IMG/VR virus record: IMGVR_UViG_3300050336_000170 | Location: 32,001-96,000 of that record | Reading direction: 5' to 3' (one strand) | DNA: 64,000 nt | From: a virus | Lineage: Duplodnaviria > Caudoviricetes | Part shown: piece by piece, positions 11,592 through 42,784 of the stretch | Position numbering within the stretch: position 1 is the stretch's first letter | Layout of the letters: each line of letters begins with the position of its first letter | Notes under the pieces: generated by a model | Seen by the model: only the letters and a program-made list of their open reading frames with translations | Told to the model about the DNA's origin: nothing | Databases searched by the model: none | Made by a program: the position numbers and the translations under genes

Positions 11592-11620
11592 ATTATACAA
11601 GACATTTCCAATAATGTCAA
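11592..11620 (-). promoter_or_regulatory. Consensus leftward sigma-A promoter
   Basis: TTGACA-17 bp-TATAAT on minus strand. Confidence 0.8.
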
Positions 11621-11697
11621 CACTTTTTTAATTATTTTATTTGATTAGTAATTATGTATTTCAAAGGACAACGCTATCTTGCCCCTTGAAATTTGTT

Positions 11698-12654
11698 TTA
11701 ATACCCAAAAGCTTTCTTCCACATGTTATATGCTAATTCAATGTCTTTTGCCTTTTGAGTAGCAACATATTCTTTTTTCAGTGCATACTCTTTATTTTCA
11801 ATATCCATTTCTACATATTCACTAAACGATATTGATATATTCTCTTTTTCGAGTTGATACCACCTATAAAACAGTCCAGATTCATATACTCTAATTGGAC
11901 TCAGTTTTATATATTGTCCTGTTTCTTCTTTATACTTTTTGTTAAACGTAGTAATCTTTGCTCCAAATTGTTTTGCTCTTAATACATTTGTCTCTTTTAA
12001 TAATCTTAATAAATATGGTGAATCGCACAGATCAAAAAATAGCTTTTCTTTTTTAGTTCTCTTCATTAATTGATTTGATGGCACTGTTATCTGTAATAAA
12101 TACTTAAAGATTGGACTAGGGGTTATAGTTTTGTTGCTTGTTTTAATAATATTATCTTCTAAATTTACTTCATCACGCCTTAAAATAACAGCCTCTTCAT
12201 TTGTAAATCCCTCATATAGTAACCAAAAATAAATCCTGTACATATTCATAAAATGTAATTCCTCAACTGGAGGATATACAACATCTAATACGTCTGCTAG
12301 ATGTTCAGGACTTTTCAACATTTCTCGTTCAAATACATATGAGTTATCTATCTCTGATGCAGATATTAATGCTAAATGATTTTCTAGTATATTCGTTTTA
12401 CCGTTAATAATACACCAATCTACGTATTGTTTTAGTCTGCTTATATTCCATGCAATACTTTTTATATCACGGCTACCAAGTGAAGCTATACTAATTTTAA
12501 GTTCATCATAATTCATCTCTGAAATGTCTTTATCAAAATCACTTTCAGCTTTATTATATAGTTTTTTAAATAATATTTTGTAACTCTCTTTGCCTTTTTC
12601 ATCCTCATTTAAACTATTAATAAACTGAAGTTTTTGATTTTCATTATACATCAT
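11698..12654 (-). CDS. yopR: MrpR/YopR(SroF)-like master repressor (catalytically degenerate tyrosine-recombinase fold)
   Basis: MYNENQKLQF...AESDFDKDISEM...LKQYVDW...LLYEG...SPIRVYESGLFY resembles SPbeta YopR; lacks catalytic R and HxxR; syntenic with yopQ-like gene. Confidence 0.7.
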   Translation of the reverse strand: MMYNENQKLQFINSLNEDEKGKESYKILFKKLYNKAESDFDKDISEMNYDELKISIASLGSRDIKSIAWNISRLKQYVDWCIINGKTNILENHLALISASEIDNSYVFEREMLKSPEHLADVLDVVYPPVEELHFMNMYRIYFWLLYEGFTNEEAVILRRDEVNLEDNIIKTSNKTITPSPIFKYLLQITVPSNQLMKRTKKEKLFFDLCDSPYLLRLLKETNVLRAKQFGAKITTFNKKYKEETGQYIKLSPIRVYESGLFYRWYQLEKENISISFSEYVEMDIENKEYALKKEYVATQKAKDIELAYNMWKKAFGY

Positions 12655-13982
12655 AATTGCTCACCCCACTTTGAGATGAAGTATTTTTCAATTTTTACCT
12701 CATCTGTTGCCTTTCTCTCTATAGGTGATACCGTCTTTCTCCAATTAATAGATTTTAATAATGATTCAAGTTTATTGCGCCAGTTTAGATCATTCTCTAG
12801 TTGCTTTGATAAATAGGTGTATCCAACCCATGTCACAGCTTCAGTTGACCATTTAGTTTTTCTAGCTAGCTCATAGTCTTTAAAATCATCTATCATCACT
12901 TCGGATAGATAGTTATAAAATTCAACTAACCAATCCTTGACTTTTTGTGCCTGTGAATTTAATGAAAAACTATTAACATTATAATATTTCTGTATTGCGT
13001 TAGCTAAAGTAATTTGAACAATAAACCCTCTCTCTATCCCTGTTGTTGTTATATTTCGCTTATATACATCTTCTGCATTAGGATCAATTTTAATCCACTC
13101 AACTATTCTATTTGCATAATTACGTTCCATTGTTTCTTTGTGTCTAGTATTTGGCGGTGTAGCTTTCCATTCCTGAGATATCATATCTTTAACTGTATCA
13201 ATATCATAGAAAGTAAAAGCTATCTCAAAATATCTATTAGCAAACAAATCTCTAAGTTCTGGATAGTTTGAATATGCATATTCTGCACCTAAAGACCTAT
13301 GATTACCGTCTGGTATAATTATATCTCCATCTTTTGGCAAATAAATGCATTTGTTTTCTTCATCATAGGTATAACTTGATAACCCATCATTGATTAAATT
13401 AAGTCTTATCATGTTGTAATGATATCTATCGTTTGCAATTTTTTCTTCAATTTCTCTTACTTTTTTCTTATTAATCTCTATTTGTTTTAATATTTCTGTG
13501 CCTTCGGAATTTTTAATTGATTTGCTTTCCCTTTGTAACTCTGGTGTTACTCTAATAATACCTTTTCTTTTTGACTCTGCCAACTGTTGAACAGACATAA
13601 TACATGAATATTGATTACTTGATAACTGCACAACGTTGTGTAGCACATAAAGATCGTCTATCTTAATATCATCTCGACTAAAGAACTTGGAATTTTTTAT
13701 TTCTACTGGAGTAAAATAATCAGATACTTTACAAACATAAACTTTTTGTTCTACTTGATTACCAATTAATTCCATTGCATAGGCAAACCAATATAACTCA
13801 AAATCTTTAAGACTATCAAGTTCAACAGATTTCATAACTAATTTCTTATAATCAGCTATTGTAAATCTTCCTTCTTGAGTCATAAAATCTTGAACTTTAC
13901 TTTTAAATTCTTCATTAGAAGAGTTAAATAGCTTTTTCTTTATTAGACTAATTAACTCTTCTCGGCTGTTTTCATTCTTCAT
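12651..13982 (-). CDS. yopQ: YopQ(SroE)-like ParB/DndB-fold protein
   Basis: ELQR and IPDGNHR motifs; SD AAAGGATG before ATG at 13982; directly upstream of the mrpR-like gene as in SPbeta. Confidence 0.7.
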   Translation of the reverse strand: MKNENSREELISLIKKKLFNSSNEEFKSKVQDFMTQEGRFTIADYKKLVMKSVELDSLKDFELYWFAYAMELIGNQVEQKVYVCKVSDYFTPVEIKNSKFFSRDDIKIDDLYVLHNVVQLSSNQYSCIMSVQQLAESKRKGIIRVTPELQRESKSIKNSEGTEILKQIEINKKKVREIEEKIANDRYHYNMIRLNLINDGLSSYTYDEENKCIYLPKDGDIIIPDGNHRSLGAEYAYSNYPELRDLFANRYFEIAFTFYDIDTVKDMISQEWKATPPNTRHKETMERNYANRIVEWIKIDPNAEDVYKRNITTTGIERGFIVQITLANAIQKYYNVNSFSLNSQAQKVKDWLVEFYNYLSEVMIDDFKDYELARKTKWSTEAVTWVGYTYLSKQLENDLNWRNKLESLLKSINWRKTVSPIERKATDEVKIEKYFISKWGEQL

Positions 13983-14001
13983 AAATACACATCCTTTTGT
14001 A

Positions 14002-14451
14002 CTAAGCTGTGGCAAGTACTCGCTCTTCGACATTAATATACTTCTTACGCAATCTTTCTACCATCGCAATTATAGATTCATTATCCATATGAATCAAAAG
14101 TGGCGTTTCCTCTGTACATGCTTCTGCGATCTTTACTATATATTCTCTTGGAAGAGTTGTGATATACTCACCTATATCGTCTTTAGACCTGAGTTGTTCT
14201 TGCTCACATAAAGCAATGCTATCCTTAGCCAATCCACATTTTTTAGCATCTAAGAAAACGTGTGTTGGCATATAAGCTTTGTTATGTTCAGCCCCTGTAA
14301 GCGGAACTGCATGGATAATAGGACTATAACGATTTCCTATATCATTTTGTGTTATGATAGCAGGCCGCCATCCAGCTTGAGAGTGCTTGTTATGTTTATC
14401 TCTTTCAAAATAAACCATATATACACTATTCATCTTGGGAATAAAGTTCAA
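14002..14451 (-). CDS. mazF: MazF/PemK-family endoribonuclease (orphan)
   Basis: SQAGWRPAIITQNDIGNRYSP...VPLT...PTHV...DSIALCEQ parallels B. subtilis NdoA; catalytic Arg and Thr retained. Confidence 0.85.
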   Translation of the reverse strand: MNFIPKMNSVYMVYFERDKHNKHSQAGWRPAIITQNDIGNRYSPIIHAVPLTGAEHNKAYMPTHVFLDAKKCGLAKDSIALCEQEQLRSKDDIGEYITTLPREYIVKIAEACTEETPLLIHMDNESIIAMVERLRKKYINVEERVLATA

Positions 14452-14501
14452 TAAATCACTTCCCTTCCTTCCTTAATTATAGAATTCATAAGTACAATAA
14501 C

Positions 14502-14530
14502 ATACTACCACAATGATTATTTGTTGTCAA
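14502..14530 (-). promoter_or_regulatory. Promoter of mazF-yopQ-mrpR operon
   Basis: TTGACA-17 bp-TAGTAT; upstream hairpin TTATTCGCCC-AAAGTAA-GGGCGAATAA at 14576-14602 could insulate it. Confidence 0.65.
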
Positions 14531-14969
14531 CAGTTATTTTAAATAATTATTAAATAATATTTGACAGTTTATCACTTATTCGCCCAAAGTAAGGGCGAAT
14601 AAGTGTGTGATTACGTACATTGCTTTTCTTTCTTTGTCTTCAATTATTATATCATAAGTAAAATCAGGTTTTTCATCGAAATAAAGAATTAAGTAACAAT
14701 TCCCATACTCACCTACATTATAACATTCTCTAAAACATTTAATTGTACCATTTTCTGCTTCACTTGATAACTTTTGCAAATCTTCTATCTTTATATTGTG
14801 TTTTACGCTAATTATATCTTTATTGCTATATTCAAAATCTAACTCCCATTTAGCAGGAATCTTAATTTTCTTTTCGTCACTTACTAATATCATATAATCT
14901 CCTTCATATTATAAATTTAATGAAAATATATAATATCACGACCTTCCAATATGATATTGACTTGTCATT

Positions 14970-18252: not shown

Positions 18253-19458
18253 TTATGCTACTCGCGTAGACAACGGATGTAAACCTACACCCTCTACCCC
18301 TTCCGCAAAAGCGTTAGGGAATACCTTCATCATTATTTGATAACTACCATTTACGTCAGCGTTAATAATGTGGTCTATTGATTTGAACAAGCCTCTTGTT
18401 ATTCTTCTTGACTTGTCATAGTTTTCTTTACACGGCACTTCACCACTTAAAAAATCTGTACCACTTGTGTACGATTCTTCAGTTGTTATAAACCTAATTC
18501 CGACATTCTGACATTTATACTCTAGCTGCTTTATAAACATTTCATACGGAATAGAAACAAACTTCTGATTAGTTTTCTTACTCATTGCAGATTCTTGTTT
18601 CCATCCCGAATTATAACCGCATACTAAAGTATCTATATCGCTTTCTAAACACAACCTTACTATAAATTTACTTGCTTTATGCATCCAATCTTTAATCTTA
18701 TTATTACGTTTTGTGGTTAACTGCTGTAGTTTGTTACTCCAATGTTTACTGTTCTTTAACATGAGTTCTGACTGTATCTTTGCTTTCTGCTTATTGTAAT
18801 ACTGATTATAAGACTTGATTACGTTACCCTTAATAGCAATAGGCTGTATACCTATGTTATTTGTAATAGTTGCAAAGTTATCAATGCCCAAATCAATACT
18901 TGCTATATTATGAGATTCTGTCGGCTGCTCCGGTATATCGATTTCATAAACGATCTCCATGATATAGTTACTTCCATTCGGTATAAAACGACACTGCATG
19001 AGTTTACCTTGTACTTTTGTTGGAACACTATATCCTTTAAATGGTTTAAAACTTATACGGAATACTTTATCATTGATTGAACATTGAATATTTTTTAGAA
19101 TAAATACCTGTCTACCATCCTTTGCTTTGTATTTAGGCAGTTTTGGTTTGCCTAAGTAACTATCTTTGTGTTTTGACCAATCTTTGATTGCTTTAAAATA
19201 TGAGTTCCATGCTCTATCTAGAAATTTCAAAATATTTTGTGATGCCTGTGACCCTAATTCTTTATAACAATCGGCATTTTGGCACATGTGATCAAGTTTA
19301 TTGTATCTAATCCATTTTTTATTATTAATAAATTCTTGCCTGATCAAATAGTTAGCATAATTATATACGTTCTTTGATCTAAAACAGTATTCATCAACAA
19401 TTTTCCATATTGGATTAGATTCTTTTATTAAATGTCTCTCTGTTCTATTTACTTTCAT
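18253..19458 (-). CDS. tnpB: Solo TnpB (IS200/IS605-family, rearranged RuvC-II type)
   Basis: IDLGIDN, VCGYNSGWKQ, EESYTS, INADVNG motifs; no adjacent tnpA. Confidence 0.9.
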   Translation of the reverse strand: MKVNRTERHLIKESNPIWKIVDEYCFRSKNVYNYANYLIRQEFINNKKWIRYNKLDHMCQNADCYKELGSQASQNILKFLDRAWNSYFKAIKDWSKHKDSYLGKPKLPKYKAKDGRQVFILKNIQCSINDKVFRISFKPFKGYSVPTKVQGKLMQCRFIPNGSNYIMEIVYEIDIPEQPTESHNIASIDLGIDNFATITNNIGIQPIAIKGNVIKSYNQYYNKQKAKIQSELMLKNSKHWSNKLQQLTTKRNNKIKDWMHKASKFIVRLCLESDIDTLVCGYNSGWKQESAMSKKTNQKFVSIPYEMFIKQLEYKCQNVGIRFITTEESYTSGTDFLSGEVPCKENYDKSRRITRGLFKSIDHIINADVNGSYQIMMKVFPNAFAEGVEGVGLHPLSTRVA

Positions 19459-25340: not shown

Positions 25341-25892
25341 TTAATTAATATCTTCGGTAATTGATAATGCAGTTTTGCTTATCCACACTGGCACATCACG
25401 CTTAGTCCACTTAAATAAATGCTGTTTATCGCCTTTGTAGTAGTTTCTGTATGCTGTTACAGCATCCCTGTCATAATATTGTATTGGCATTGCTTGAACG
25501 AATGGTGTTAAGCCGATAGATGGTAAACTAATATCAATACGTCCATCAATAAATTTAAAATAGCTGCCATGATCCTGCGTGTGACCGCCTCTGTATTTCC
25601 ACTCATCGTTAAGAGTTTCTAACATTGAAAATAGATAATCATAATTCTGTTGTGATTCTCTTACCCACTTATTGCAAGGATGATTAACATGTGTCGGCTT
25701 TATAGTTGGTGTGCATTTTGAATATAGTGTTTTAAACTTTTCAATATCTCTTACCGTAACTATATATCCTGTCTGTATATAGATTGCGGTTGATAACATC
25801 TGAGCATATTCACTTATCATTTTATTAACGTGTTTATCCGTATAATATTGAGCATTTTTATTTAAGTCATAATCAAGTACAAATATATTCAT
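25341..25892 (-). CDS. Pyrimidine-dimer DNA glycosylase / DenV-like family protein
   Basis: MNIFVLD...DKHVNKMISEYAQMLST...THVNHPCNKWVRES...AYRNYY. Confidence 0.75.
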   Translation of the reverse strand: MNIFVLDYDLNKNAQYYTDKHVNKMISEYAQMLSTAIYIQTGYIVTVRDIEKFKTLYSKCTPTIKPTHVNHPCNKWVRESQQNYDYLFSMLETLNDEWKYRGGHTQDHGSYFKFIDGRIDISLPSIGLTPFVQAMPIQYYDRDAVTAYRNYYKGDKQHLFKWTKRDVPVWISKTALSITEDIN

Positions 25893-29612: not shown

Positions 29613-32029
29613 ATTAGTCTCTAGTACAAAATACTTTCCTGACAGAATAATGTCTAACTTTATTTCAGTATCGATATTGATATTTGTACCCAATTTCCAT
29701 ATTTCATCAATATCAATTTCATTTGTATGACAGCTTACTAATACTTTGTTTCCTTCCTGTAGTGCCTTGAATGCTTTATCAATTTTTACAGGCTTCAACC
29801 GTTCACCCCCTTACCCTATGTATCCTGTTTACATTACTATTATATGCTGATTGTTTTGTTTTGTCTAGTTTATTTTATTTAATTTGTATATAAAGTTTAA
29901 GCGGTTTTATTGGTTACTATGCTACCTGTTTGCTTAATAGCATTGCGAATATTAAATACAATGTCATATACTTTTTGACTTCCTGTACCATTTTTGCTTT
30001 TCCAATAACGATAACTTACACCACCGTATTCTGTTATGGTACATTCAGCCAATGTGTTTAGTATCCAACCTCTTGTGCGAATTGGAATATTTATATTATA
30101 TTTGTCTGCTAGTTTTACAATCAAATTACCTCCGTTAATTGTTCCACCATTTAATATGATATTTTCTGTTGATTTAATCATTTCATTCTCTTGTCTTGCC
30201 TGTTCGTCTGCTTCTATTTTCTTTTTCTTTTCACGTTCTTCTTTTTTAATGGCTTCTTCCTGCTGTTTAATTGCTTTAATTTTTGCACTAATTTCAACGC
30301 ATTTATCTAATTCTTTTAAGAAAGCTGCACCGTGAAAATCTGCAAACTTCCCATTGTTGTCTCTTGCATCAATATATTGTGCTATACAACGATCAATGCC
30401 TAATTTAAGAAATTCAGCCTGTAACTGTTCGTTATTACCGTGTTCAGAAATAAATGCTTCTTCTTTTGCTGTTTGTTCTTCTACTAATGGTTTATATTCC
30501 TCATAGTTTTTACCTTTATAAATGTCATGAAATATTTTCTCACGATTTTCAGAACCATGATAGAATTCTTGAATTAAATATTCATAATTACTTCTCTGTT
30601 TTAAATCATATTCTGTATAACCAAAAGACACAAGATAATCATTTGTTTCAATCATATAATAATACTTGTCATCATCATTTTTTGCGTATTCTTTATCGGG
30701 TTTTCCTGCACTAATCCACAACGGATAGTCTATACCGTCACAAGAAAGTGTTTTTACATATTTTGCCCTGATCCGTTTTCCATCGCGGTTAAACATACCA
30801 TTAATAAAAAGAGGCTTCATAAGTTTTGCATGTTCCTCTATTTCTTTTTCATCAGTATGAAACACTTCATTTTTTGTTTCTTCTGGTTTTGTATAACGTG
30901 GAGATAGTCCATATTTTTCTACAGCACTTTCAATCATTGCATGAAATTTTTCAATACCATAATTTTTAAATGCTTCTTCAAATTTATTAGTATCACATAC
31001 GCCCAAACCGCTTTTGCCTTCTGTTAGTTTCCCATCAATTTCAAATAAATCTAGTCCATATGAATTATGAAATATTTTTGCATTTTGTACTGGTTCAAAC
31101 TTATGCATCGTTTTACCGTTTTCATCTTTTCCAATGTTCTTTAATATGTAACAAACATTACTATGTTTCTGTTCAGTCATTTTAATATTACCTTCCTACT
31201 CCAATAAATAGTTTATGCTTGCCCCATTTTATAATTTTAAAATCTACCTTGTCTAATGTTTGTACTAAATCTTTTATATTCCGTCTAACTTCAGATATTG
31301 ACGGAGCAATGCAGCAATCAACTAAAATTTTAGGTAAGAATCTTTCATTTGTGAATACCGTCATGTCCTTTTCTGTTTGTTTCCAATCATCCATATCAAA
31401 AGCAAACAATACAGAGGGATGAACGAGTAAATCACCTATAACAACATTTTCTATATGCTTCATGTTAACCTCATTTTTCTATTAAATCATTAATTCCATT
31501 AAATATTTTCGACATAATTGATTGATACTTGATATTGGCTTTTTCTTTTGCTTCTTCCATAGTGCAAAGAATAAAGTCGGCTTGTAATTGATCATTAATG
31601 TAATATGAATAATAATATTTATCATCATAGTTTATGGCAGGAATAGAAATAGTAAAAGATATTGATTTAACAAAAGGTATATTGATTATCGCTTCATAAC
31701 CACTCAATTCTCCTTTAAAGTATTTTTCATACCAATTCAAGTTTTTGAAAATCATTTTGTGTTTACTCCTTATCAATATATTGTATTCTTTCGCTGTTTA
31801 TATACTACATCTTGACGCAAAATCACCATAAAATTGCCGTTTTATCGTGGTATCTTTATACAATCAGGATGACAACCATAATATTCTATTCCATATGCAA
31901 TTACATCATATCTCTCAAAATCTTCGTCATGATATCCTGCACGTTTACCAATTACTTCACCATAAATCCATTCACTTTCTTTGATTTTTGAATTATATAC
32001 TTCAATTAAACATTTCTGATACATTTTCA

Positions 32030-33664
32030 TTACGCTCCTAACTGTAATAATTGATTTGATTCAACTAGATAATACTGTTTATTATTCATAACTTTATTAT
32101 ACTCCTGCTGCCCCTCATAATCGTCTATAACCATTTTTTCTTCGCTGTTCATATCCTTATATGCTTTCTTGCCGTATGAAGGTGGAAGCCATCCTTTGCG
32201 CTGCGAGGCATACAAATTAAATTTTGCAAGTAATTCAAGATTAGTAAATTCAATATGTGCAGTTCCTTTTTGATAAAAACTGATATTAAAATATTTTAAT
32301 GGTATTTTCTTTGTATCTCCATAATCTTGCGCTAATTTTAATGAATCAACTAAATTTACATTTGCAGTTAATCCACCATCAAGATAATTGAAAACCTTTT
32401 CAATGTCTTCTAATTTTTCTCTAACCTTATACATATAATCAAGATATCCAGACCAACTATAACAACTTAATGGTATAATTACTTTTTTGTTTATCTTCCA
32501 TGCGCTGTTTGTCTTCCATCCATTATAATAGTGTATATTTGCGCTGTTATCTTTATCCCAATAATACTTATGTGAAAACTCATCAAACAGATTCAAAATA
32601 GTATCTTCTATACCCTGTACCATATTCTTAGACATTTCAAGCTTAATTGTATAAATATTAAACAACGAAAAATCATAGTCAACTAATTCGTTTATTCTGT
32701 TATAGTAATCCTGTCTTAAATTACCTGTTAGTTGTCCTGTAAATTCTTTGTTATCAAATAACGCTTTCCAGTACTTATGTCTAACACGTTTAATAAATGT
32801 GTTTATGCTTGGATAATCACCATCAGAGTTATGAGGATTATCAACCGTCAATTCAAGTATAGATTGTTTGCTAACATATTCGCCTTTATCATTTTTCTCA
32901 AAACTACGCAATATAACAGGCTTCATTGCGTTGAATTCATTTATTAGATTAATACCTGCTTTAATTTCTAATTTATATTGACCAACAATAGCCTTTATAA
33001 AATCATTATGCACAAGCGAATAATATTCGTCAGGCTGTTCAGCTTCAATAATTGGCTTTTCCTGTTTAAGCTGTTCATAAATATATGATGATTTTTCAGC
33101 TTCAGGAATGTGTATCTTAATCAATGCAATTTCAACATCTGTTTTACGTTCTGCATCATAAAAAGCATTCTGTATATATTCAATACTTGCATTATATTCA
33201 TCTAGTTTTTGTGTTAACTCTTTTCGTCTGTTACTGTATGGATTTTTCAGTGTTTCGGCATTGAGTAGACAAACAATGTTGCCTCCGCTTTTCTGCATTT
33301 CTAATGCCTTTAATAAATGTTGATCCCCATTTGAAAAAGGTGGATTCATCACGATTAAACTATATTGTTTATAAGTATCCAATGTTAAAAAATCATCATG
33401 TATAACTCTATATCCTTTGCCCTTTAAGATATGACGGAAATTTTCATTTATTTCTATACAGTCAATGTCTGGATTGTATTTTTTCCTATCATGACTATAA
33501 TTATTGTGTTTATAATCCATTTTATCCGCTACTATTTTGACCAGATGCCCCTCCCCCGCCGAAGGTTCAAGAACGCTAGATATATAATTAAAGTCTATAC
33601 CATCAACCATTTTGTTAATAATGTGTAATGGTGTCGGATAGTATTCTTCAGGTATGTTATGCAT
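32030..33664 (-). CDS. DUF4942-type SAM-dependent DNA methyltransferase
   Basis: YYPTP, VLEPSAGEG, MNPPF; C-terminal FYQKGTAHIEF. Confidence 0.85.
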   Translation of the reverse strand: MHNIPEEYYPTPLHIINKMVDGIDFNYISSVLEPSAGEGHLVKIVADKMDYKHNNYSHDRKKYNPDIDCIEINENFRHILKGKGYRVIHDDFLTLDTYKQYSLIVMNPPFSNGDQHLLKALEMQKSGGNIVCLLNAETLKNPYSNRRKELTQKLDEYNASIEYIQNAFYDAERKTDVEIALIKIHIPEAEKSSYIYEQLKQEKPIIEAEQPDEYYSLVHNDFIKAIVGQYKLEIKAGINLINEFNAMKPVILRSFEKNDKGEYVSKQSILELTVDNPHNSDGDYPSINTFIKRVRHKYWKALFDNKEFTGQLTGNLRQDYYNRINELVDYDFSLFNIYTIKLEMSKNMVQGIEDTILNLFDEFSHKYYWDKDNSANIHYYNGWKTNSAWKINKKVIIPLSCYSWSGYLDYMYKVREKLEDIEKVFNYLDGGLTANVNLVDSLKLAQDYGDTKKIPLKYFNISFYQKGTAHIEFTNLELLAKFNLYASQRKGWLPPSYGKKAYKDMNSEEKMVIDDYEGQQEYNKVMNNKQYYLVESNQLLQLGA

Positions 33665-33732: not shown

Positions 33733-35727
33733 TTATCTATCTGATCTATCTACCAGAATGTTAACATTGTTTTGTTTTAAATAATCTTTAATATCTTTGA
33801 TTTGCTGATTGTCACATGACCCATACTTGGAACTACGGCAAGTAAATCCGTTTTTAACTTCTACATTCCACAAGATAGTTTCTGGTATGGTATGCCATCC
33901 GCTAGCAACAATAAAACACTTATTGCTATGATAATATGTGTAGTATTGTTTACGCTTGTTTTCGGGCGTGAAGACTGTTTTTACTGCATCATCATATTGA
34001 GCATATTTGCAATTGGTAACGCTGTGCATTTTTACTCTGCTTTCCGTAACCATTCCAAAATCACTAATGCAAAATATAGTTATTTTGTCACCGTCTTTTA
34101 TATTGGCTTCTGTGAATTGTTCTTGTACTCCGTTGATGTGTTCAATAAATCCATATAAATATTGCTTTAGTTCTTCAATTTCTGTTTGTTGTATAATGCC
34201 TTTTGTTAGTGTTATATTGTTTTCTTTTAATTGCTGTTTAAGTGCTGTTTTATAAACATCGCTTGTCTGCCAATCTGTTATTAATTCATTTTTATAGATA
34301 ATCTCTGTACTGATATCCTCAATCCCAGATGCAACAATTTTATCTCGTGCTATTGCTTCAGCTTCTTCTGTGCTAATGCCATAACTTGAATTGTTATAAG
34401 TGTTTGCATTTTCTTCACGTTCTGCCGTATCTGTTAAACCTACATAACGTGCATAATTAAATCCCTGTGGATCAATAACAAATTGAAGTTGATTATTAAA
34501 ATACACAGCTAATCCTGTGAGATTCCATTTTACAGTTTCTTTTTCTTTCTTGCTCATATTACTATAATCCGTCATGCTGTTACATCTTGGATCATCTGTA
34601 TAACTTCCACCAGTACCGCCGATAAAATCAAAATCATGTGAAAGCATATTTTTATATAGTTCTAAAGCTTCAAATGTTTTAAAGTTTACTTCTCTAGTTA
34701 TTTTGATATCCTGATAATTAAATCCGTCTTCGTTTTCTCCTTTTTCTACTTCCTCAATATACTCGTCAATTGTATTGTTTTTGTTAAGGTGTGCAAACTT
34801 ACAGCCAATAAGCATATATTGATCATTTTCCATCAGGTCAACAAAGGAAACATTATTAATAATAATTTCTATTTGCTTTTCTTCCTGTTCTGCAATTCGC
34901 TTGTTTTCTTCTTTTTCAATTTCACGCTGTTTAATTGCTTCTTCAACTTCAATTTTGCGCTGTTCTTCATCCTGCTGTTCTTTGATTTCTAACGCTTTGC
35001 GGAATTCTTCAATAATAGTTTTGTGCTCTTCTGTCTGTTCTATCTGCTCATAATCATACGATGATATATCAACATGCGTATAAATATTATAACTGCTGCC
35101 ATAGTCACCATAAGGATCATAACAAGTGCAATGTTTAAAACTGTTTAAATACTTTTTACAATAGTCAATAATTGCTGTTAATTCTTTGTCGTTTTCTTTA
35201 ACCATTCTGTTATATTCGTATCTGTCCATATTTTCATATTTAGAATCATAGCTAGTATGATTATATGGACTTGATTTTAACTCAATAGAAACACTATCAT
35301 AATTTGAGCATGTAATACTAAATTTACATTCAGGAAAACGCTGTCTAATATGCTGTCTAACAACCTTTGTTATCTCTTTACCGCCATAACCATATGACGG
35401 ATTATAATTATTTACATCATCTGCAATCTGCACACGATCAAACAACGGCAAAAGATTATTGTTATTGCCTGTTTTTCGCTGTTCTGTTTTAACTTCCTGT
35501 GTTGCTTTTTCGGTTTTGTGTTCCTGCTCAATATCTTTTATATCTTGTGCGGTTAGCTGCTTTGCAAGTGTAATTGTTTTGTCGTTCTGCCTTGCATACC
35601 ATACCTTTTTTACATTGTGCCAACGAAAACCGCATTCTTTCAAGTTATTGAGAATATCGCTGGATGGCTTCTTTTCAAAAGACAATTCAACGCCGTTTAA
35701 TTTCTCATTGATTATCATAGTACACAT
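33733..35727 (-). CDS. Polyvalent-type protein with LPD29-like domain
   Basis: NGVELSFEKKP...GFRWH..KKVWYA N-terminus; VRQHIRQRFPECKFSI motif. Confidence 0.6.
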   Translation of the reverse strand: MCTMIINEKLNGVELSFEKKPSSDILNNLKECGFRWHNVKKVWYARQNDKTITLAKQLTAQDIKDIEQEHKTEKATQEVKTEQRKTGNNNNLLPLFDRVQIADDVNNYNPSYGYGGKEITKVVRQHIRQRFPECKFSITCSNYDSVSIELKSSPYNHTSYDSKYENMDRYEYNRMVKENDKELTAIIDYCKKYLNSFKHCTCYDPYGDYGSSYNIYTHVDISSYDYEQIEQTEEHKTIIEEFRKALEIKEQQDEEQRKIEVEEAIKQREIEKEENKRIAEQEEKQIEIIINNVSFVDLMENDQYMLIGCKFAHLNKNNTIDEYIEEVEKGENEDGFNYQDIKITREVNFKTFEALELYKNMLSHDFDFIGGTGGSYTDDPRCNSMTDYSNMSKKEKETVKWNLTGLAVYFNNQLQFVIDPQGFNYARYVGLTDTAEREENANTYNNSSYGISTEEAEAIARDKIVASGIEDISTEIIYKNELITDWQTSDVYKTALKQQLKENNITLTKGIIQQTEIEELKQYLYGFIEHINGVQEQFTEANIKDGDKITIFCISDFGMVTESRVKMHSVTNCKYAQYDDAVKTVFTPENKRKQYYTYYHSNKCFIVASGWHTIPETILWNVEVKNGFTCRSSKYGSCDNQQIKDIKDYLKQNNVNILVDRSDR

Positions 35728-36359: not shown

Positions 36360-37421
36360 TTATGCGCTCAATTGCTCCTGTGATTTAAAATATTTGTTAT
36401 AATCGCTCTGTATAGCCTCTAGTCTTGTTCTAACTGCTTCAGCCTTTGCGCTTCCTGATCCGATTGCATCATTGTATTTGTCGTTATTTGTTGCGCTTCT
36501 CTTGCCATTGTAAAAACTCATTAACCATTCTGCAAATGCACTCAATGAAACATTGTCAGTAAATGACTGTAATGTTATCGGAACAATAGAAACAAGATTA
36601 GTCCTTGTAAAAATATGCTTTGCTGTTTTCCTCAGTGCCTTCTGTTTATCTTTGTCTTCCTCTTCCTGTTCTGATAATTTCATGATATACAAATGAGCAT
36701 CAGCAATTCGTGTAAATGCACTGTCAATCTCATCTGCCTGTTCTGCTGTGATTTCTGCTGTTTCTATCAATGGGCGAATTTCTTTTGTTTCAAATGATAC
36801 ATTTGGTATGTTCTGAATTGCCCATGCTTTAATTACAATGTCTTCATTCGTATACTTTGTTAATGCCTTCTCGCTTACTGCTTCGCTGAATATCGGATGT
36901 TTACCAAGTTGCTTGATTGTATCAATGCTTTTTGCCTTGACTCTAGTTAACTCAATAGCTGTTAACGGTTTGCCATTGTTCAACCTAAAGAACATTTCTG
37001 TTATTTCTTCTTCTGTAATGCAGGATTCAAACCAGTAAAAAGTTAAATTATAATCTCTGATTTTGTCTTGAATTTCTTCTGATAGTTGATCAAAAAACAT
37101 CTCACCAATATTATCCACATAACCATTATCAAGCGTGATTTCTGGCGTTTCTTCATGCAATGCATATTCGTTATTTAGGAATCCTTTAATTGCTTCTGAT
37201 CTTTGCTTACCCTCAATGCAATCATAATTGCCGTTATCGGTCTTAACTGCATAAATCGGCGGTACTGGATAATCAGCGATTAGACTATGAATCAACAGAG
37301 ATTTTCTTTTATTGTCCCATACCAAACCGCGCTGAATTGCATTATCAAATGTCACAGTGCCATTCGTCACCATTTTAGAATATTGTTTTACAGTGTAGTT
37401 ATTCGGATGCTTTTTGATCAT
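36360..37421 (-). CDS. DUF262 (ParB/Srx-fold) protein
   Basis: IQRGLVW, EGKQR, FFRLNNGKPL motifs. Confidence 0.8.
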   Translation of the reverse strand: MIKKHPNNYTVKQYSKMVTNGTVTFDNAIQRGLVWDNKRKSLLIHSLIADYPVPPIYAVKTDNGNYDCIEGKQRSEAIKGFLNNEYALHEETPEITLDNGYVDNIGEMFFDQLSEEIQDKIRDYNLTFYWFESCITEEEITEMFFRLNNGKPLTAIELTRVKAKSIDTIKQLGKHPIFSEAVSEKALTKYTNEDIVIKAWAIQNIPNVSFETKEIRPLIETAEITAEQADEIDSAFTRIADAHLYIMKLSEQEEEDKDKQKALRKTAKHIFTRTNLVSIVPITLQSFTDNVSLSAFAEWLMSFYNGKRSATNNDKYNDAIGSGSAKAEAVRTRLEAIQSDYNKYFKSQEQLSA

Positions 37422-41533: not shown

Positions 41534-42784
41534 TTAAAATACTTTACAGCGCGTTAGCTCCGTTTGCTTTTCGCCATTGTATTCTTTATGCTCTTTGATA
41601 GTTCCCTTGATATTAGTGAATGATTCGATTGCAGGATATTCGCCCTTGCTATTTTCAACATGACTTTTATTTGTACGCCACACATACACAGCACCGTTAG
41701 AATCAATTATTTTGAATATATGAGTTATTCCGTATTGCGTTTCATAGTGTGCGATATGCGTAATTGTAACGGCTTGTAATGATATCTTATCGCCTACTTT
41801 GCCAACATAATTACTTTTAGGTTGATTTGCTTTTTCTGCTTCTCTTGCTATTCTATCAGCTTCTTTTTCCATTGCTTTGAAGTATGCTGAAGGAAGACTA
41901 ACCAAAATACCAATGTCACGCCATTCGCAATATTGATTGCTTACAGATACTTTTAGATTATTCAAGTATTGATTGTCTGCACTTTGACTTTTTGCCCATT
42001 CAACCATTGTATTGACTTCTGCTTTGTTTTTGTCGTTGTCTATGGTTTTTAGGTTAATCCCGTATTTCTGAATTTTTTCATGTGCAAGTTGAGAATCAGG
42101 ATTGAACATTAGTTCTTTTACAATTTCACTTGTTGGCATTGTATAAAGCTCTTCGGCTTTGCTCTTTGAAACAAATCCAGCCTTTTTGACTACTTCATTA
42201 GCCATTAACAAAACGTCTAATACGTCAATGTAATGCCGTGTAAAGCCTCCTAAACTTTCATGATCATTTAATTCAGCGATTGTATTAAAGTAGCTTGCAA
42301 AGCTTGCAGCCATTTCAGCGGATAAACCGCTAGTGTAATCTTGCAAGCATGATTTACCTACTTGCTTTATCTCATTGGTAACGGTATTAAGAATAAGATA
42401 AGAATCTTTACGATATCTGTCAATATTGCAATGATCACAATGAGCGGAAACGGTTTTATACTTATCAGGTATTGCAATTTCAGAATATGAGCGAATAATG
42501 TTTCCTGCTTCGGTATGCTCAATGGTAGCAAGAAATCGCCAGTTATTAATGATTGCTTTTCCTTCAACTTCGATGATAACAAAACGTTCTAATTTTTCAA
42601 AAGTCTTTGCAAGTTGTCTTTGACCGTATGCACCTTCAATTTCTTTGTAGTGCTGAAGGTTTTTAAACTCTTCGCCTACTTCGGCATATGAGAAGGTGCA
42701 GCCGTATTTATTGCACTTGTTTTCGATACGGTGAAGCTTTTCTATTAACTTCGGTAAATTGTCTTCATGAATTGAGTATTGCAT
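41534..42784 (-). CDS. Phage protein with Zn site and probable C-terminal OB-fold
   Basis: CDHC...QVGKSC; YVGKVGDK...IKGTIKEHKEY..EKQTELTRC. Confidence 0.65.
   Translation of the reverse strand: MQYSIHEDNLPKLIEKLHRIENKCNKYGCTFSYAEVGEEFKNLQHYKEIEGAYGQRQLAKTFEKLERFVIIEVEGKAIINNWRFLATIEHTEAGNIIRSYSEIAIPDKYKTVSAHCDHCNIDRYRKDSYLILNTVTNEIKQVGKSCLQDYTSGLSAEMAASFASYFNTIAELNDHESLGGFTRHYIDVLDVLLMANEVVKKAGFVSKSKAEELYTMPTSEIVKELMFNPDSQLAHEKIQKYGINLKTIDNDKNKAEVNTMVEWAKSQSADNQYLNNLKVSVSNQYCEWRDIGILVSLPSAYFKAMEKEADRIAREAEKANQPKSNYVGKVGDKISLQAVTITHIAHYETQYGITHIFKIIDSNGAVYVWRTNKSHVENSKGEYPAIESFTNIKGTIKEHKEYNGEKQTELTRCKVF

Follow-up and report, generated by a model that had tools for sequence, protein, structure and literature searches.

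The locus described here raises the question of why a temperate phage should carry a gene for a MazF-like endoribonuclease, with no mazE beside it, at the head of what appears to be its own repressor operon. It lies in the window, the 64,000-nucleotide stretch that was analysed (positions 32,001 to 96,000 of IMG/VR record IMGVR_UViG_3300050336_000170), and the source record is a prophage of 131,585 bp from an anaerobic digester, with an estimated completeness of 80%. All the parts that a preliminary description had listed were found at their coordinates on the minus strand, in the order promoter, mazF-like gene, yopQ/sroE-like gene, mrpR/sroF-like gene and hairpin. The features are as follows.

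14576..14893, minus strand: upstream 105-aa ORF, no Pfam or PHROG match
14573..14605, minus strand: perfect 13-bp hairpin, read from the sequence, that includes the 105-aa ORF's stop codon; no U-tract after it
14502..14530, minus strand: sigma-A-type promoter, TTGACA-17-TAGTAT, 10/12 matches plus an upstream TG
14459..14472, minus strand: purine-rich Shine-Dalgarno sequence, 7 nt before the mazF TTG start
14002..14451, minus strand: mazF-like endoribonuclease gene, 149 aa, TTG start; PF02452 at 1.5e-16
12651..13982, minus strand: yopQ/sroE-like gene, 443 aa from the ATG at 13982; PHROG 5732 at 9e-46
11698..12654, minus strand: mrpR/sroF-like recombinase-fold repressor gene, 318 aa; Pfam MrpR_N_CB at 7.6e-16
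11658..11692, minus strand: hairpin directly 3' of the mrpR stop, no U-tract
11653..11658, minus strand: UACAUA, beginning at the last base of the post-mrpR hairpin
11592..11620, minus strand: perfect consensus promoter, TTGACA-17-TATAAT, 12/12 matches, serving the downstream UACAUA-rich gene block

In phages phi3T and SPbeta, whose transcripts are rich in MazF sites, lysogeny is promoted by the MazF of the host (PMC10769878; 10.1101/2023.04.27.537455; 10.1101/2025.11.27.690993). The MazF route to lysogeny in Bacillus phages, with MazE, AimX, YosL and SroB as partners, has been described as still uncharacterised. The answer that we prefer, with a probability of roughly one half, is that the unit is a three-gene lysogeny-control operon (mazF, yopQ/sroE, mrpR/sroF) of a large SPbeta-like temperate phage, in which MazF would be the built-in RNase arm of the lysogeny module, sparing its own block and cutting lytic transcripts.

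The first gene product matches PHROG 1936 ('MazF-like growth inhibitor') at 1e-17 and Pfam PemK_toxin with 61 bits against a cut-off of 23.1, is 36–40% identical to Bacillus and Staphylococcus MazF, and is matched by MazF chains of the PDB at 2e-16 to 4e-14. Its catalytic Arg and Thr had been called intact; R29 and T52 do align with the catalytic R25 and T48 of B. subtilis MazF, and both residues, together with PTHV and other core positions, are invariant among 37 diverse relatives at about 40% identity. An AF2 model (pLDDT 88.4) shows the MazF fold, an SH3-like barrel, followed by a long C-terminal helix. Foldseek aligns this model with 4MDX (E 5e-12, target TM 0.86, rmsd 1.7 over 111 columns), and residues 118–142 of the 143-aa form, belonging to a C-terminal extension of about 30 residues, fall outside the match. 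We infer that the protein is an active endoribonuclease cutting at UACAUA, a specificity assumed from the 36–40% identity to characterised MazFs. In Bacillota, MazF cutting at UACAUA is conserved, narrow and non-lethal (10.64898/2026.08.06.743204).

The protein thus has the fold, catalytic residues and RNA-binding loops of the chromosomal MazEF systems (EndoA/EndoAI) of Bacillus subtilis, Staphylococcus aureus and Listeria, and probably their UACAUA specificity as well. Unlike those systems, the window mazF has no upstream mazE, encodes the additional C-terminal helix, is phage-borne and is followed by recombinase-fold repressor genes.

The longest ORF for the second gene spans 12651–14033, and the ATG at 13982, 20 nt after the mazF stop, is its probable start, as in a related locus, L008, which has a yopQ-like gene in the same position and the same mazF-yopQ-mrpR trio. 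The predicted protein shares 24% identity with SPbeta YopQ (tblastn 2e-12) and has a weak DndB match besides that to PHROG 5732. For the third gene, the family profile matches solved YopR/MrpR at 1e-11, with about 280 of 317 positions covered, and PDB 9rd5, a related CB-domain protein, at 2.7e-13 over nearly its full length; XerA is matched at only 6e-3, and the MrpR-like protein has no Phage_integrase Pfam match. As to the recombinase catalytic residues, the G-x-R-x-x-E box reads G-F-T-N-E-E in an alignment that, at 22–25% identity, is not residue-exact. Simple k-mer and palindrome searches of this genome, aimed at repeated SPBRE-like operators, yielded no significant repeated element.

The preliminary description had regarded the MazF as an orphan and had seen no arbitrium genes, and both statements hold for the whole 131.6-kb record: neither MazE_antitoxin (PF04014) nor Peptidase_S24 has a match, nor do AimR (PF22871), SPbeta YopK or TPR_12, in a search that detected AimR in the B. 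subtilis genome as a control and that a very divergent receptor could escape. Nor does AimR occur in any of 35 related viral records, of which 16 are at least 90% complete. An RHH_1 match about 68 kb away is weak and below cut-off. Besides the MrpR-like protein, no recognisable repressor, CI-type S24 included, was found in the record, and the ORFs upstream of the operon have no HTH_3 or Phage_integrase matches.

The sole candidate for an adjacent antitoxin is the 105-aa ORF. Among 5.8 billion proteins its only homologue is itself, and it is unrelated to SPbeta YopN and to the conserved gene of about 107 aa ('F8') that lies 5' of mazF in many relatives. It stands outside the conserved module, the genes 5' of mazF vary between relatives, and no conserved antitoxin is adjacent; a neighbouring cognate antitoxin, which would have spoken against the original proposal, was not found. 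A type II MazEF module, with an adjacent MazE of AbrB or RHH type, is accordingly not supported, since MazE_antitoxin has no match in the record and the upstream ORF is an ORFan.

Type III toxins of the ToxIN kind share the Kid/MazF-like fold, and ToxIN resembles the window locus in combining an RNase toxin (here a predicted one) with a preceding hairpin and no protein antitoxin gene. The window protein differs in being a true MazF/PemK member rather than a ToxN. No tandem repeat, and hence no array of an antitoxin RNA, occurs between 14452 and 15000, and a type III assignment is not supported.

The next observation concerns the neighbourhood of the extended MazF. An MrpR-like gene lies directly 3' of it in 79 of 80 viral loci, which represent 34 MrpR clusters at 70% identity and range from 34 to 53% GC. 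The same was scored for 22 of 27 extended MazFs in Clostridia genomes, and one further locus (L116) has an MrpR-like gene in this position that the profile missed. No MrpR-like gene follows directly on any of about 50 MazFs of canonical length. The C-terminal helix thus marks a MazF subfamily that is almost always found directly 5' of an MrpR-type gene; a single clade for this subfamily is not rejected (AU P 0.51). We found no paper in the literature that describes the mazF-mrpR pairing. At least 398 IMG/VR matches belong to this family, which spans 34 or more diverged lineages; some members are prophages from Clostridia of the gut and rumen, with loci in MAGs of Oscillospiraceae, Ruminococcus and Roseburia. 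The preliminary description had staked its proposal on conservation of mazF at this position, and the position is indeed kept across a large family, with mazF tightly linked to the repressor genes.

This survey bears on three other explanations. The first is that mazF is an orphan toxin moron that came to lie next to repressor genes by chance, without any functional link. Phages commonly carry MazF-like genes (74 phage records), and the surroundings of these genes differ: Thomasclavelia phage TR-TP1, for example, has one beside a true integrase, and phage Perkons has one in a set of small genes. However, adjacency conserved in so many diverged lineages and specific to the extended subfamily, with the promoter, coupling and cut-site pattern also conserved, contradicts this reading in our view, and we consider it extremely improbable.

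The second possibility is a reversed toxin-antitoxin arrangement, in which the antitoxin would be the repressor itself, MrpR or, in this phage, YopQ, keeping MazF inactive by way of the C-terminal helix of MazF and freeing it upon loss or inactivation of the repressor. The toxin gene comes first and is translationally coupled, with gaps of 0–30 nt or overlaps; the extension co-occurs strictly with MrpR adjacency; and there is no other conserved antitoxin candidate. Moreover, the association runs one way: an extended MazF hardly ever lacks an MrpR partner, but SPbeta, the phage D-1873 contig and two of three other MrpR-bearing Clostridia genomes have MrpR and no MazF. This is the pattern expected of a toxin dependent on its neutraliser. 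Nevertheless, a toxin-binding role is not known for MrpR-type proteins, YopQ separates mazF from mrpR in the window, and the model alone leaves unexplained the change in UACAUA density described below. Since Bacillota MazF is reported to be non-lethal and narrowly specific, an antitoxin may also not be needed. On balance we judge this arrangement unlikely.

A third alternative is that the MazF-like protein no longer cuts RNA and instead assists MrpR on DNA, either structurally as a co-repressor or as a specificity subunit. Such a role would accord with the strict pairing and with a helix peculiar to the subfamily, and according to the MrpR paper, binding to specific DNA sites in vivo may require additional factors. 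The invariance of the catalytic Arg/Thr and of the RNA-binding loops (QNxxGN, PTHV) across sequences only about 40% identical is hard to explain without an enzymatic function, which makes this alternative very improbable.

Returning to the operon reading, several signals suggest that mazF is transcribed from its own promoter together with the repressor genes. In this AT-rich DNA the window promoter alone is not above chance (40 promoter-like sites against 40.5 expected), but an equivalent near-consensus promoter lies 5' of mazF in 31 of 34 relatives, compared with 4.6% of control windows, and also in L008. The latter keeps the TTG-AAC/T-TTT start of mazF as well; in the window a strong Shine-Dalgarno sequence precedes this TTG, and none is suitably spaced from an alternative start, the ATG at 14433. 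The mrpR start overlaps the yopQ stop (ATGA). The preliminary description had closed the operon with a hairpin terminator. The hairpin is there and has an equivalent in L008, and most relatives carry a GC-rich hairpin plus a T-run after mrpR; however, both hairpins flanking the window operon lack a U-tract, and 'terminator' is therefore not established for this phage.

A further line of evidence comes from the distribution of UACAUA. The copy at the end of the post-mrpR hairpin is the sole one between 14620 and 11500, and L008 has one at the same place, just after its mrpR hairpin, followed by the same downstream-promoter arrangement. Within 100 nt after the mrpR stop, the motif occurs in 16 of 34 relatives where 7% would be expected (P 4e-10). 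Exactly at this site the sense-strand density rises about fivefold: the minus strand of the left arm holds 67 copies in the 43.3 kb below 11653 and 10 in the 31.6 kb above it. Compared with synonymous-codon shuffles, the motif is over-represented in the lytic blocks (z +2.7 to +4.9), whereas its counts in the operon and in the upstream blocks do not exceed expectation (binomial P 1.2e-4 for the partition). Across 30 relatives the motif occurs 0.60 times per kb upstream, 0.48 in the operon and 0.93 downstream; downstream exceeds upstream in 26 of them (P 6e-5), and the antisense control shows the opposite. The compared loci are related, and therefore these P values overstate independence.

The lack of sites inside the window operon is not significant alone (0 UACAUA against 1.5 expected; P 0.15 for UACAU), UACAUA-free stretches longer than that of the operon occur elsewhere, and a search of 35 operons for avoided 5-mers, made without a preset motif, gave nothing strong. 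In relatives, the post-mrpR UACAUA sits inside a longer conserved box (TTTACATATATCAAnnTAATTA), which could be a DNA operator or promoter element instead of an RNA cut site.

The same distribution weighs on a different placement of the enzyme, in an early operon of the lytic programme, where the RNase would shut off host messages or host defence and the MrpR-like protein would serve as a temporal regulator or in the manner of Cro. A divergent HTH_3 plus Peptidase_S24 (CI-like) repressor stands immediately upstream of the unit in about 12 of 35 representative relatives, and the unit precedes same-strand HD, ERF, nuclease, DnaB and primase genes, much like the early genes of lambdoid phages. We concede that in these S24-bearing relatives, about one-third of the total, the pair might act in the early lytic programme, which tells against our preferred reading. 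For the window phage, however, the MrpR-like protein is the only recognisable repressor, the unit has its own promoter and then a hairpin or terminator, and an RNase of this specificity in the lytic phase would damage the phage's own UACAUA-rich lytic messages. Furthermore, SPbeta MrpR and phi3T SroF have been shown experimentally to be master repressors (PMC10516654; 10.1101/2025.11.27.690993). A lytic role here is thus quite doubtful.

If MazF is indeed the RNase arm of the lysogeny module, it would be made together with the repressor proteins and would cut lytic transcripts, early and late, that are rich in UACAUA. Any transcript reading through from the repressor operon would be cut at the site just after the mrpR hairpin, while the operon's own message and the UACAUA-poor 30-kb upstream block would be spared, and infection would be tipped toward lysogeny or lysogeny kept tight. 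For its MazF activity the phage would draw on a gene in cis, where phi3T and SPbeta release host MazF through SroB and arbitrium. A lysogen would have to tolerate constant MazF synthesis, a point that weighs against this reading; it might do so because of the narrow six-base specificity, the TTG start and possibly a restraint that MrpR or YopQ exerts through the C-terminal helix. Other roles offered at the outset, namely MazE titration, formation of heterodimers with host MazF and superinfection defence, may also apply.

The absence of AimR, the UACAUA at the 3' edge of the operon and the family-wide change in density are consistent with the view that this phage has internalised a MazF function for which SPbeta and phi3T rely on the host. 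The pairing suggests that a means of control which Bacillus phages borrow from their host may have become part of the virus itself. More tentatively, and with less than even odds, we can imagine a self-contained RNA-level lysis-lysogeny circuit that replaces arbitrium and host MazEF in phages of anaerobic Clostridia: a UACAUA-specific MazF co-transcribed with the repressor, a protected block poor in sites and lytic blocks rich in them, a sentinel site that severs read-through, and a helix that couples the RNase to MrpR. A phage with its own RNase and repressor in one operon, and no arbitrium, would be a stripped-down natural version of the Bacillus circuit, and the phage-borne operon reduces the question of MazF and lysogeny to two or three genes. 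Given the size of the family, the arrangement may bear on dormancy control in many large temperate gut phages.

The closest known counterpart is the sro operon (sroA-F, or yopM-R) of SPbeta and phi3T, which likewise ends in an adjacent SroE/SroF-like pair, has its own promoter and a trailing hairpin, and belongs to phages of about 130 kb whose lytic genes contain many copies of the MazF cut site; in both, MazF activity would be tied to the lysogeny decision, a tie that for the window phage is inferred here. As in SPbeta, the MrpR/SroF gene is last and the YopQ/SroE gene lies directly 5' of it. In contrast, the window phage encodes MazF itself, as the first gene of the operon and in the place of SroA-D, and it has no recognisable homologue of aimR-aimP-aimX, of SroA-D (YopM, YopN, HTH YopO and integrase-like YopP) or of a MazE mimic. 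The hosts differ as well, Bacillus for the sro phages and anaerobic Clostridia-type bacteria for the window phage, and protein identity between the window phage and SPbeta is 22–25%.

The two-gene mazF-mrpR units of gut and rumen Clostridia phages share with the window the extended MazF, the MrpR family, the promoter type and the UACAUA after mrpR. They differ in lacking YopQ, which is absent within 10 kb, and in the upstream gene of about 107 aa or the divergent S24 repressor that accompanies many and some of them, respectively. The window phage and L008 form a deep low-GC side branch that retains YopQ between mazF and mrpR, and this YopQ links the mazF-mrpR pair of the Clostridia phages to the sroE-sroF pair of SPbeta.

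The gene order anticipated in the preliminary description, a promoter followed by mazF-like, yopQ-like and mrpR-like genes, is present in full on the minus strand, with the three genes tightly linked between 11698 and 14451. The three genes are as follows.

14002-14451, minus strand: mazF-like gene (MazF/PemK; Pfam 1.5e-16; PHROG 1936) with a TTG start
12651-14033, minus strand: yopQ/sroE-like gene (PHROG 5732, 9e-46), likely starting at the ATG at 13982, 20 nt past the mazF stop
11698-12654, minus strand: mrpR/sroF-like gene (MrpR_N_CB, 7.6e-16), whose start overlaps the yopQ stop

The YopQ/SroE-like protein shares 24% identity with SPbeta YopQ. Over approximately 280 of 317 positions, the MrpR family profile aligns to the solved structures of YopR/MrpR and to a related CB-domain protein, whereas its match to the true recombinase XerA reaches only 6e-3. 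A search of the whole record revealed no Peptidase_S24 repressor and no convincing HTH_3 protein, and therefore the MrpR-like protein is its sole recognisable repressor candidate.

The region upstream of mazF contains a hairpin of 13 bp, a promoter (TTGACA-17-TAGTAT, with a TG upstream) and a strong Shine-Dalgarno sequence, although in such AT-rich DNA (the window is about 30% GC) the promoter match taken alone is not above chance. The mrpR gene is followed by a hairpin and then by a perfect consensus promoter serving the next genes. Both flanking hairpins lack a U-tract, and thus the terminator proposed earlier stands as a hairpin only. The complete anatomy, including the TTG-AAY-TTT start, is repeated in the closest relative (L008), which carries the same three genes. 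More broadly, among 34 representatives of related phage loci (one per MrpR cluster at 70% identity), 31 have a near-consensus promoter of the extended -10 type 40-80 nt 5' of mazF, compared with 4.6% of control windows, and most carry a GC-rich hairpin, usually with a T-run, 3' of mrpR. With this promoter and hairpin, the mazF-mrpR unit is autonomous.

The encoded MazF is 36-40% identical to Bacillus and Staphylococcus MazFs, with R29 and T52 at the positions of the catalytic residues, as had been noted from the sequence. The AlphaFold model (pLDDT 88) adopts the MazF fold (4MDX, TM 0.86) and adds a long C-terminal helix that is absent from canonical MazFs and common to database relatives of about 143 aa. 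A set of core residues, among them the Arg, the Thr and the PTHV loop, does not vary among 37 diverse members of this extended subfamily, which argues for retained enzymatic function. The extension was also considered as a mimic of the MazE helix, and inspection by eye showed no match to M-x3-Y-x-E-M, the published pattern of MazE, AimX and YosL (PMC10769878).

The preliminary description had called this mazF an orphan, and the searches agree. MazE_antitoxin has no match in the whole record, and the only RHH match is weak and about 68 kb distant. The adjacent 105-aa ORF, which lies upstream of mazF, belongs to no family, finds no homologue among 5.8 billion proteins and is related neither to SPbeta YopN nor to the gene found before mazF in relatives. 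It also lacks usable neighbours in the Atlas and is poorly modelled there, and it was rejected as an antitoxin. No tandem-repeat RNA array was found upstream of mazF. Arbitrium genes, likewise reported as not visible, are absent by profile: AimR (PF22871), SPbeta YopK and TPR_12 gave no match in the 131,585-bp IMG/VR provirus record, of which the window covers bases 32001-96000, while controls were detected, and AimR gave none in 35 related viral records, 16 of which are at least 90% complete. Two large ORFs upstream of mazF were rejected as AimR candidates. One, inside the phage, encodes a 401-aa TnpB (18253-19458; OrfB_IS605 and a Cas12f1-like TNB domain) with no tnpA nearby; the other, of 427 aa, has no family and no TPR-like neighbours.

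This MazF type is almost always paired with an MrpR-like gene. In an IMG/VR survey seeded with extended MazF, for which 80 loci were fetched out of at least 398 confirmed relatives, in 79 the next gene downstream is MrpR-like and on the same strand, with a usual spacing of 0-30 nt. These loci form 34 MrpR clusters at 70% identity and span 34-53% GC, such that the position of mazF beside mrpR is indeed conserved; none has a YopQ-like gene within 10 kb. Extended MazF also occurs in bacterial genomes, specifically in MAGs of Oscillospiraceae, Ruminococcus, Roseburia and other Clostridia, where the profile places an MrpR-like gene directly downstream in 22 of 27 loci. In one more (L116, the isolate genome of Clostridiales Family XIII bacterium PM5-7) the gene is present though missed by the profile, two (L095 and L100) end too near mazF for the downstream gene to be judged, and one (L113) is a genuine exception. 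In the same genome search, none of about 50 canonical-length MazFs has an MrpR-like neighbour. MrpR-like genes are found without mazF in SPbeta, in two of the three other MrpR-bearing Clostridia genomes among 400 sampled and on a Clostridium phage D-1873 contig (ACSJ01000014; L002:594-3075). The latter encodes a YopQ-like protein of 460 aa and an MrpR-like protein of 368 aa (MrpR_N_CB 5e-22), and mazF is absent from the 593 nt available upstream of the YopQ-like gene. Thus, the dependence is one-sided: extended MazF requires a nearby MrpR, whereas MrpR can do without MazF. An AU test does not reject one origin for the extended subfamily (P 0.51), and the window and L008 form a deep branch.

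This one-sided dependence, together with the subfamily-specific C-terminal helix, fits what we regard as the strongest rival explanation, namely a toxin-antitoxin pair in reversed order in which the repressor would be the neutraliser of MazF. A complex prediction for a MazF dimer with MrpR scored 0.00 in a run made without controls and is evidence neither way.

In phi3T, the sro operon makes the repressor and also frees host MazF via SroB, and lysogeny is favoured by MazF activity (PMC10769878; 10.1101/2025.11.27.690993). Here, a MazF gene occupies the place of SroA-D. The most economical interpretation is a phage that provides its own RNase. This reading and the reversed pair are not mutually exclusive. 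If the phage enzyme shares the UACAUA specificity of its Bacillota homologues, which we assume from their identity, it would cut UACAUA-rich lytic messages and any read-through leaving the repressor operon, while its own UACAUA-poor gene block would be spared. In B. subtilis, Listeria and S. aureus, MazF cleaves strictly at U^ACAUA and is non-lethal (10.64898/2026.08.06.743204), and MazF sites are enriched in phi3T and SPbeta transcripts (10.1101/2023.04.27.537455).

The distribution of UACAUA is consistent with such a scheme. Minus-strand transcription occupies the left 43 kb of the window and plus-strand transcription the right part; a 416-aa ORF (41534-42784; no Pfam match, PHROG 2319 of unknown function only) adjoins the divergence point. 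On the left arm, minus-strand UACAUA occurs at 1.55 per kb below 11653 and at 0.32 per kb from 11653 to 43263, a 31.6-kb block with only 10 sense-strand sites. Beyond the operon and the TnpB gene, this block includes the following genes.

25341-25892, minus strand: pyrimidine-dimer glycosylase
32030-33664, minus strand: DUF4942/Dam-like methyltransferase
33733-35727, minus strand: LPD29 protein
36360-37421, minus strand: GmrSD-like protein with a GmrSD_N nuclease domain

Relative to synonymous-codon shuffles, UACAUA is over-represented in the downstream blocks and in the right (structural) arm (35 observed vs 20.1 expected, 16 vs 9.0 and 50 vs 29.2), whereas its counts in the operon (0 vs 1.5) and the 28 kb upstream (4 vs 9.3) match expectation or fall short of it. 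The partition has a binomial P of 1.2e-4, with block boundaries set after the gene map was seen. Across 30 representative relatives, which are kin, density per kb is 0.60 upstream, 0.48 within the operon and 0.93 downstream, and downstream exceeds upstream in 26 (sign test 6e-5), with the antisense control trending in the opposite direction. Inside the operon alone, counts of UACAU and UACAUA are low but not significantly so. By length, the UACAUA-free stretch that contains the operon ranks only fifth on the left arm, and a blind 5-mer search of 35 mazF-mrpR operons revealed no avoided word beyond amino-acid composition effects. Overall, the proposal of an internalised MazF as a lysogeny switch agrees with the missing AimR, the UACAUA at the 3' edge of the operon and the UACAUA density pattern, and it remains an inference.

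The sole UACAUA between 14620 and 11500 (11658-11653) starts on the last base of the post-mrpR hairpin, and L008 has one in the same place. Among the 34 representatives, UACAUA lies within 100 nt past the mrpR stop in 16 (7% expected, P 4e-10) and within 130 nt before mazF in 11. In many relatives, the site directly after the mrpR terminator belongs to a conserved box, TTTACATATATCAAnnTAATTA (also given as TTTACATATATCAA), found at these places in representative loci.

L014:11392-11440, and equivalent places in L023, L049, L054, L056, L080, L046 and L047: after mrpR
L019:9924-9935 and L004:7954-7965: where the mazF promoter is predicted to start transcription

The box contains UACAUA yet exceeds the MazF site in length, and it could be a DNA element rather than an RNA cut site. 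Its candidate roles are an operator for MrpR, part of a promoter or a signal for RNA processing. A search of the genome for an SPBRE-like repeated operator (exact 11-mers; 5-7-nt inverted-repeat arms) yielded no element that stayed significant once multiple testing was taken into account.

Some relatives suggest a role for the unit in the lytic phase instead. In about a third, a divergent CI/LexA-like repressor gene (HTH_3 and Peptidase_S24) lies just upstream of the mazF-mrpR unit (L014:8416-9219, minus strand, and approximately 11 other representative loci), which would give these phages two repressor-type proteins. The record studied here, however, has no gene of this type. Separately, 19 of 37 representative loci (L014:9528-9872, L004:7572-7886 and 17 others) have a conserved gene, about 107 aa long and without a Pfam family, immediately 5' of the mazF promoter; the window lacks it.

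Full-text searches turned up work on host MazEF with SPbeta and phi3T but nothing on a phage-encoded MazF paired with MrpR. The window contributes a version with three genes, YopQ/SroE included, from a digester prophage of low GC, and this version ties the mazF-mrpR pair of Clostridia phages to the sroE-sroF pair of SPbeta. The sequencing-run search places the locus in one run only, a DNA run from an anaerobic digester metagenome that may be the sample of origin, and lists no RNA run. GenBank phages match neither the locus (blastn) nor MrpR (tblastn), and viral contigs yielded no close relatives from a single-protein query or a three-sequence MrpR alignment.

Two cultured or named phages carry canonical-length MazFs in other arrangements. 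In Thomasclavelia phage TR-TP1 (PQ571309; L012:1034-2354), a MazF-like gene lies directly 5' of a bona fide tyrosine integrase (Phage_integrase 1.4e-35) that is not MrpR-type. The cultured 137-kb Psychrobacillus phage Perkons (MT325768) has a yopP-yopQ-yopR-like trio (L175:3638-7071) with an orphan MazF (L174:2998-3360) 11 kb upstream on the same strand, and it may be a second, independent SPbeta-like phage with its own MazF.
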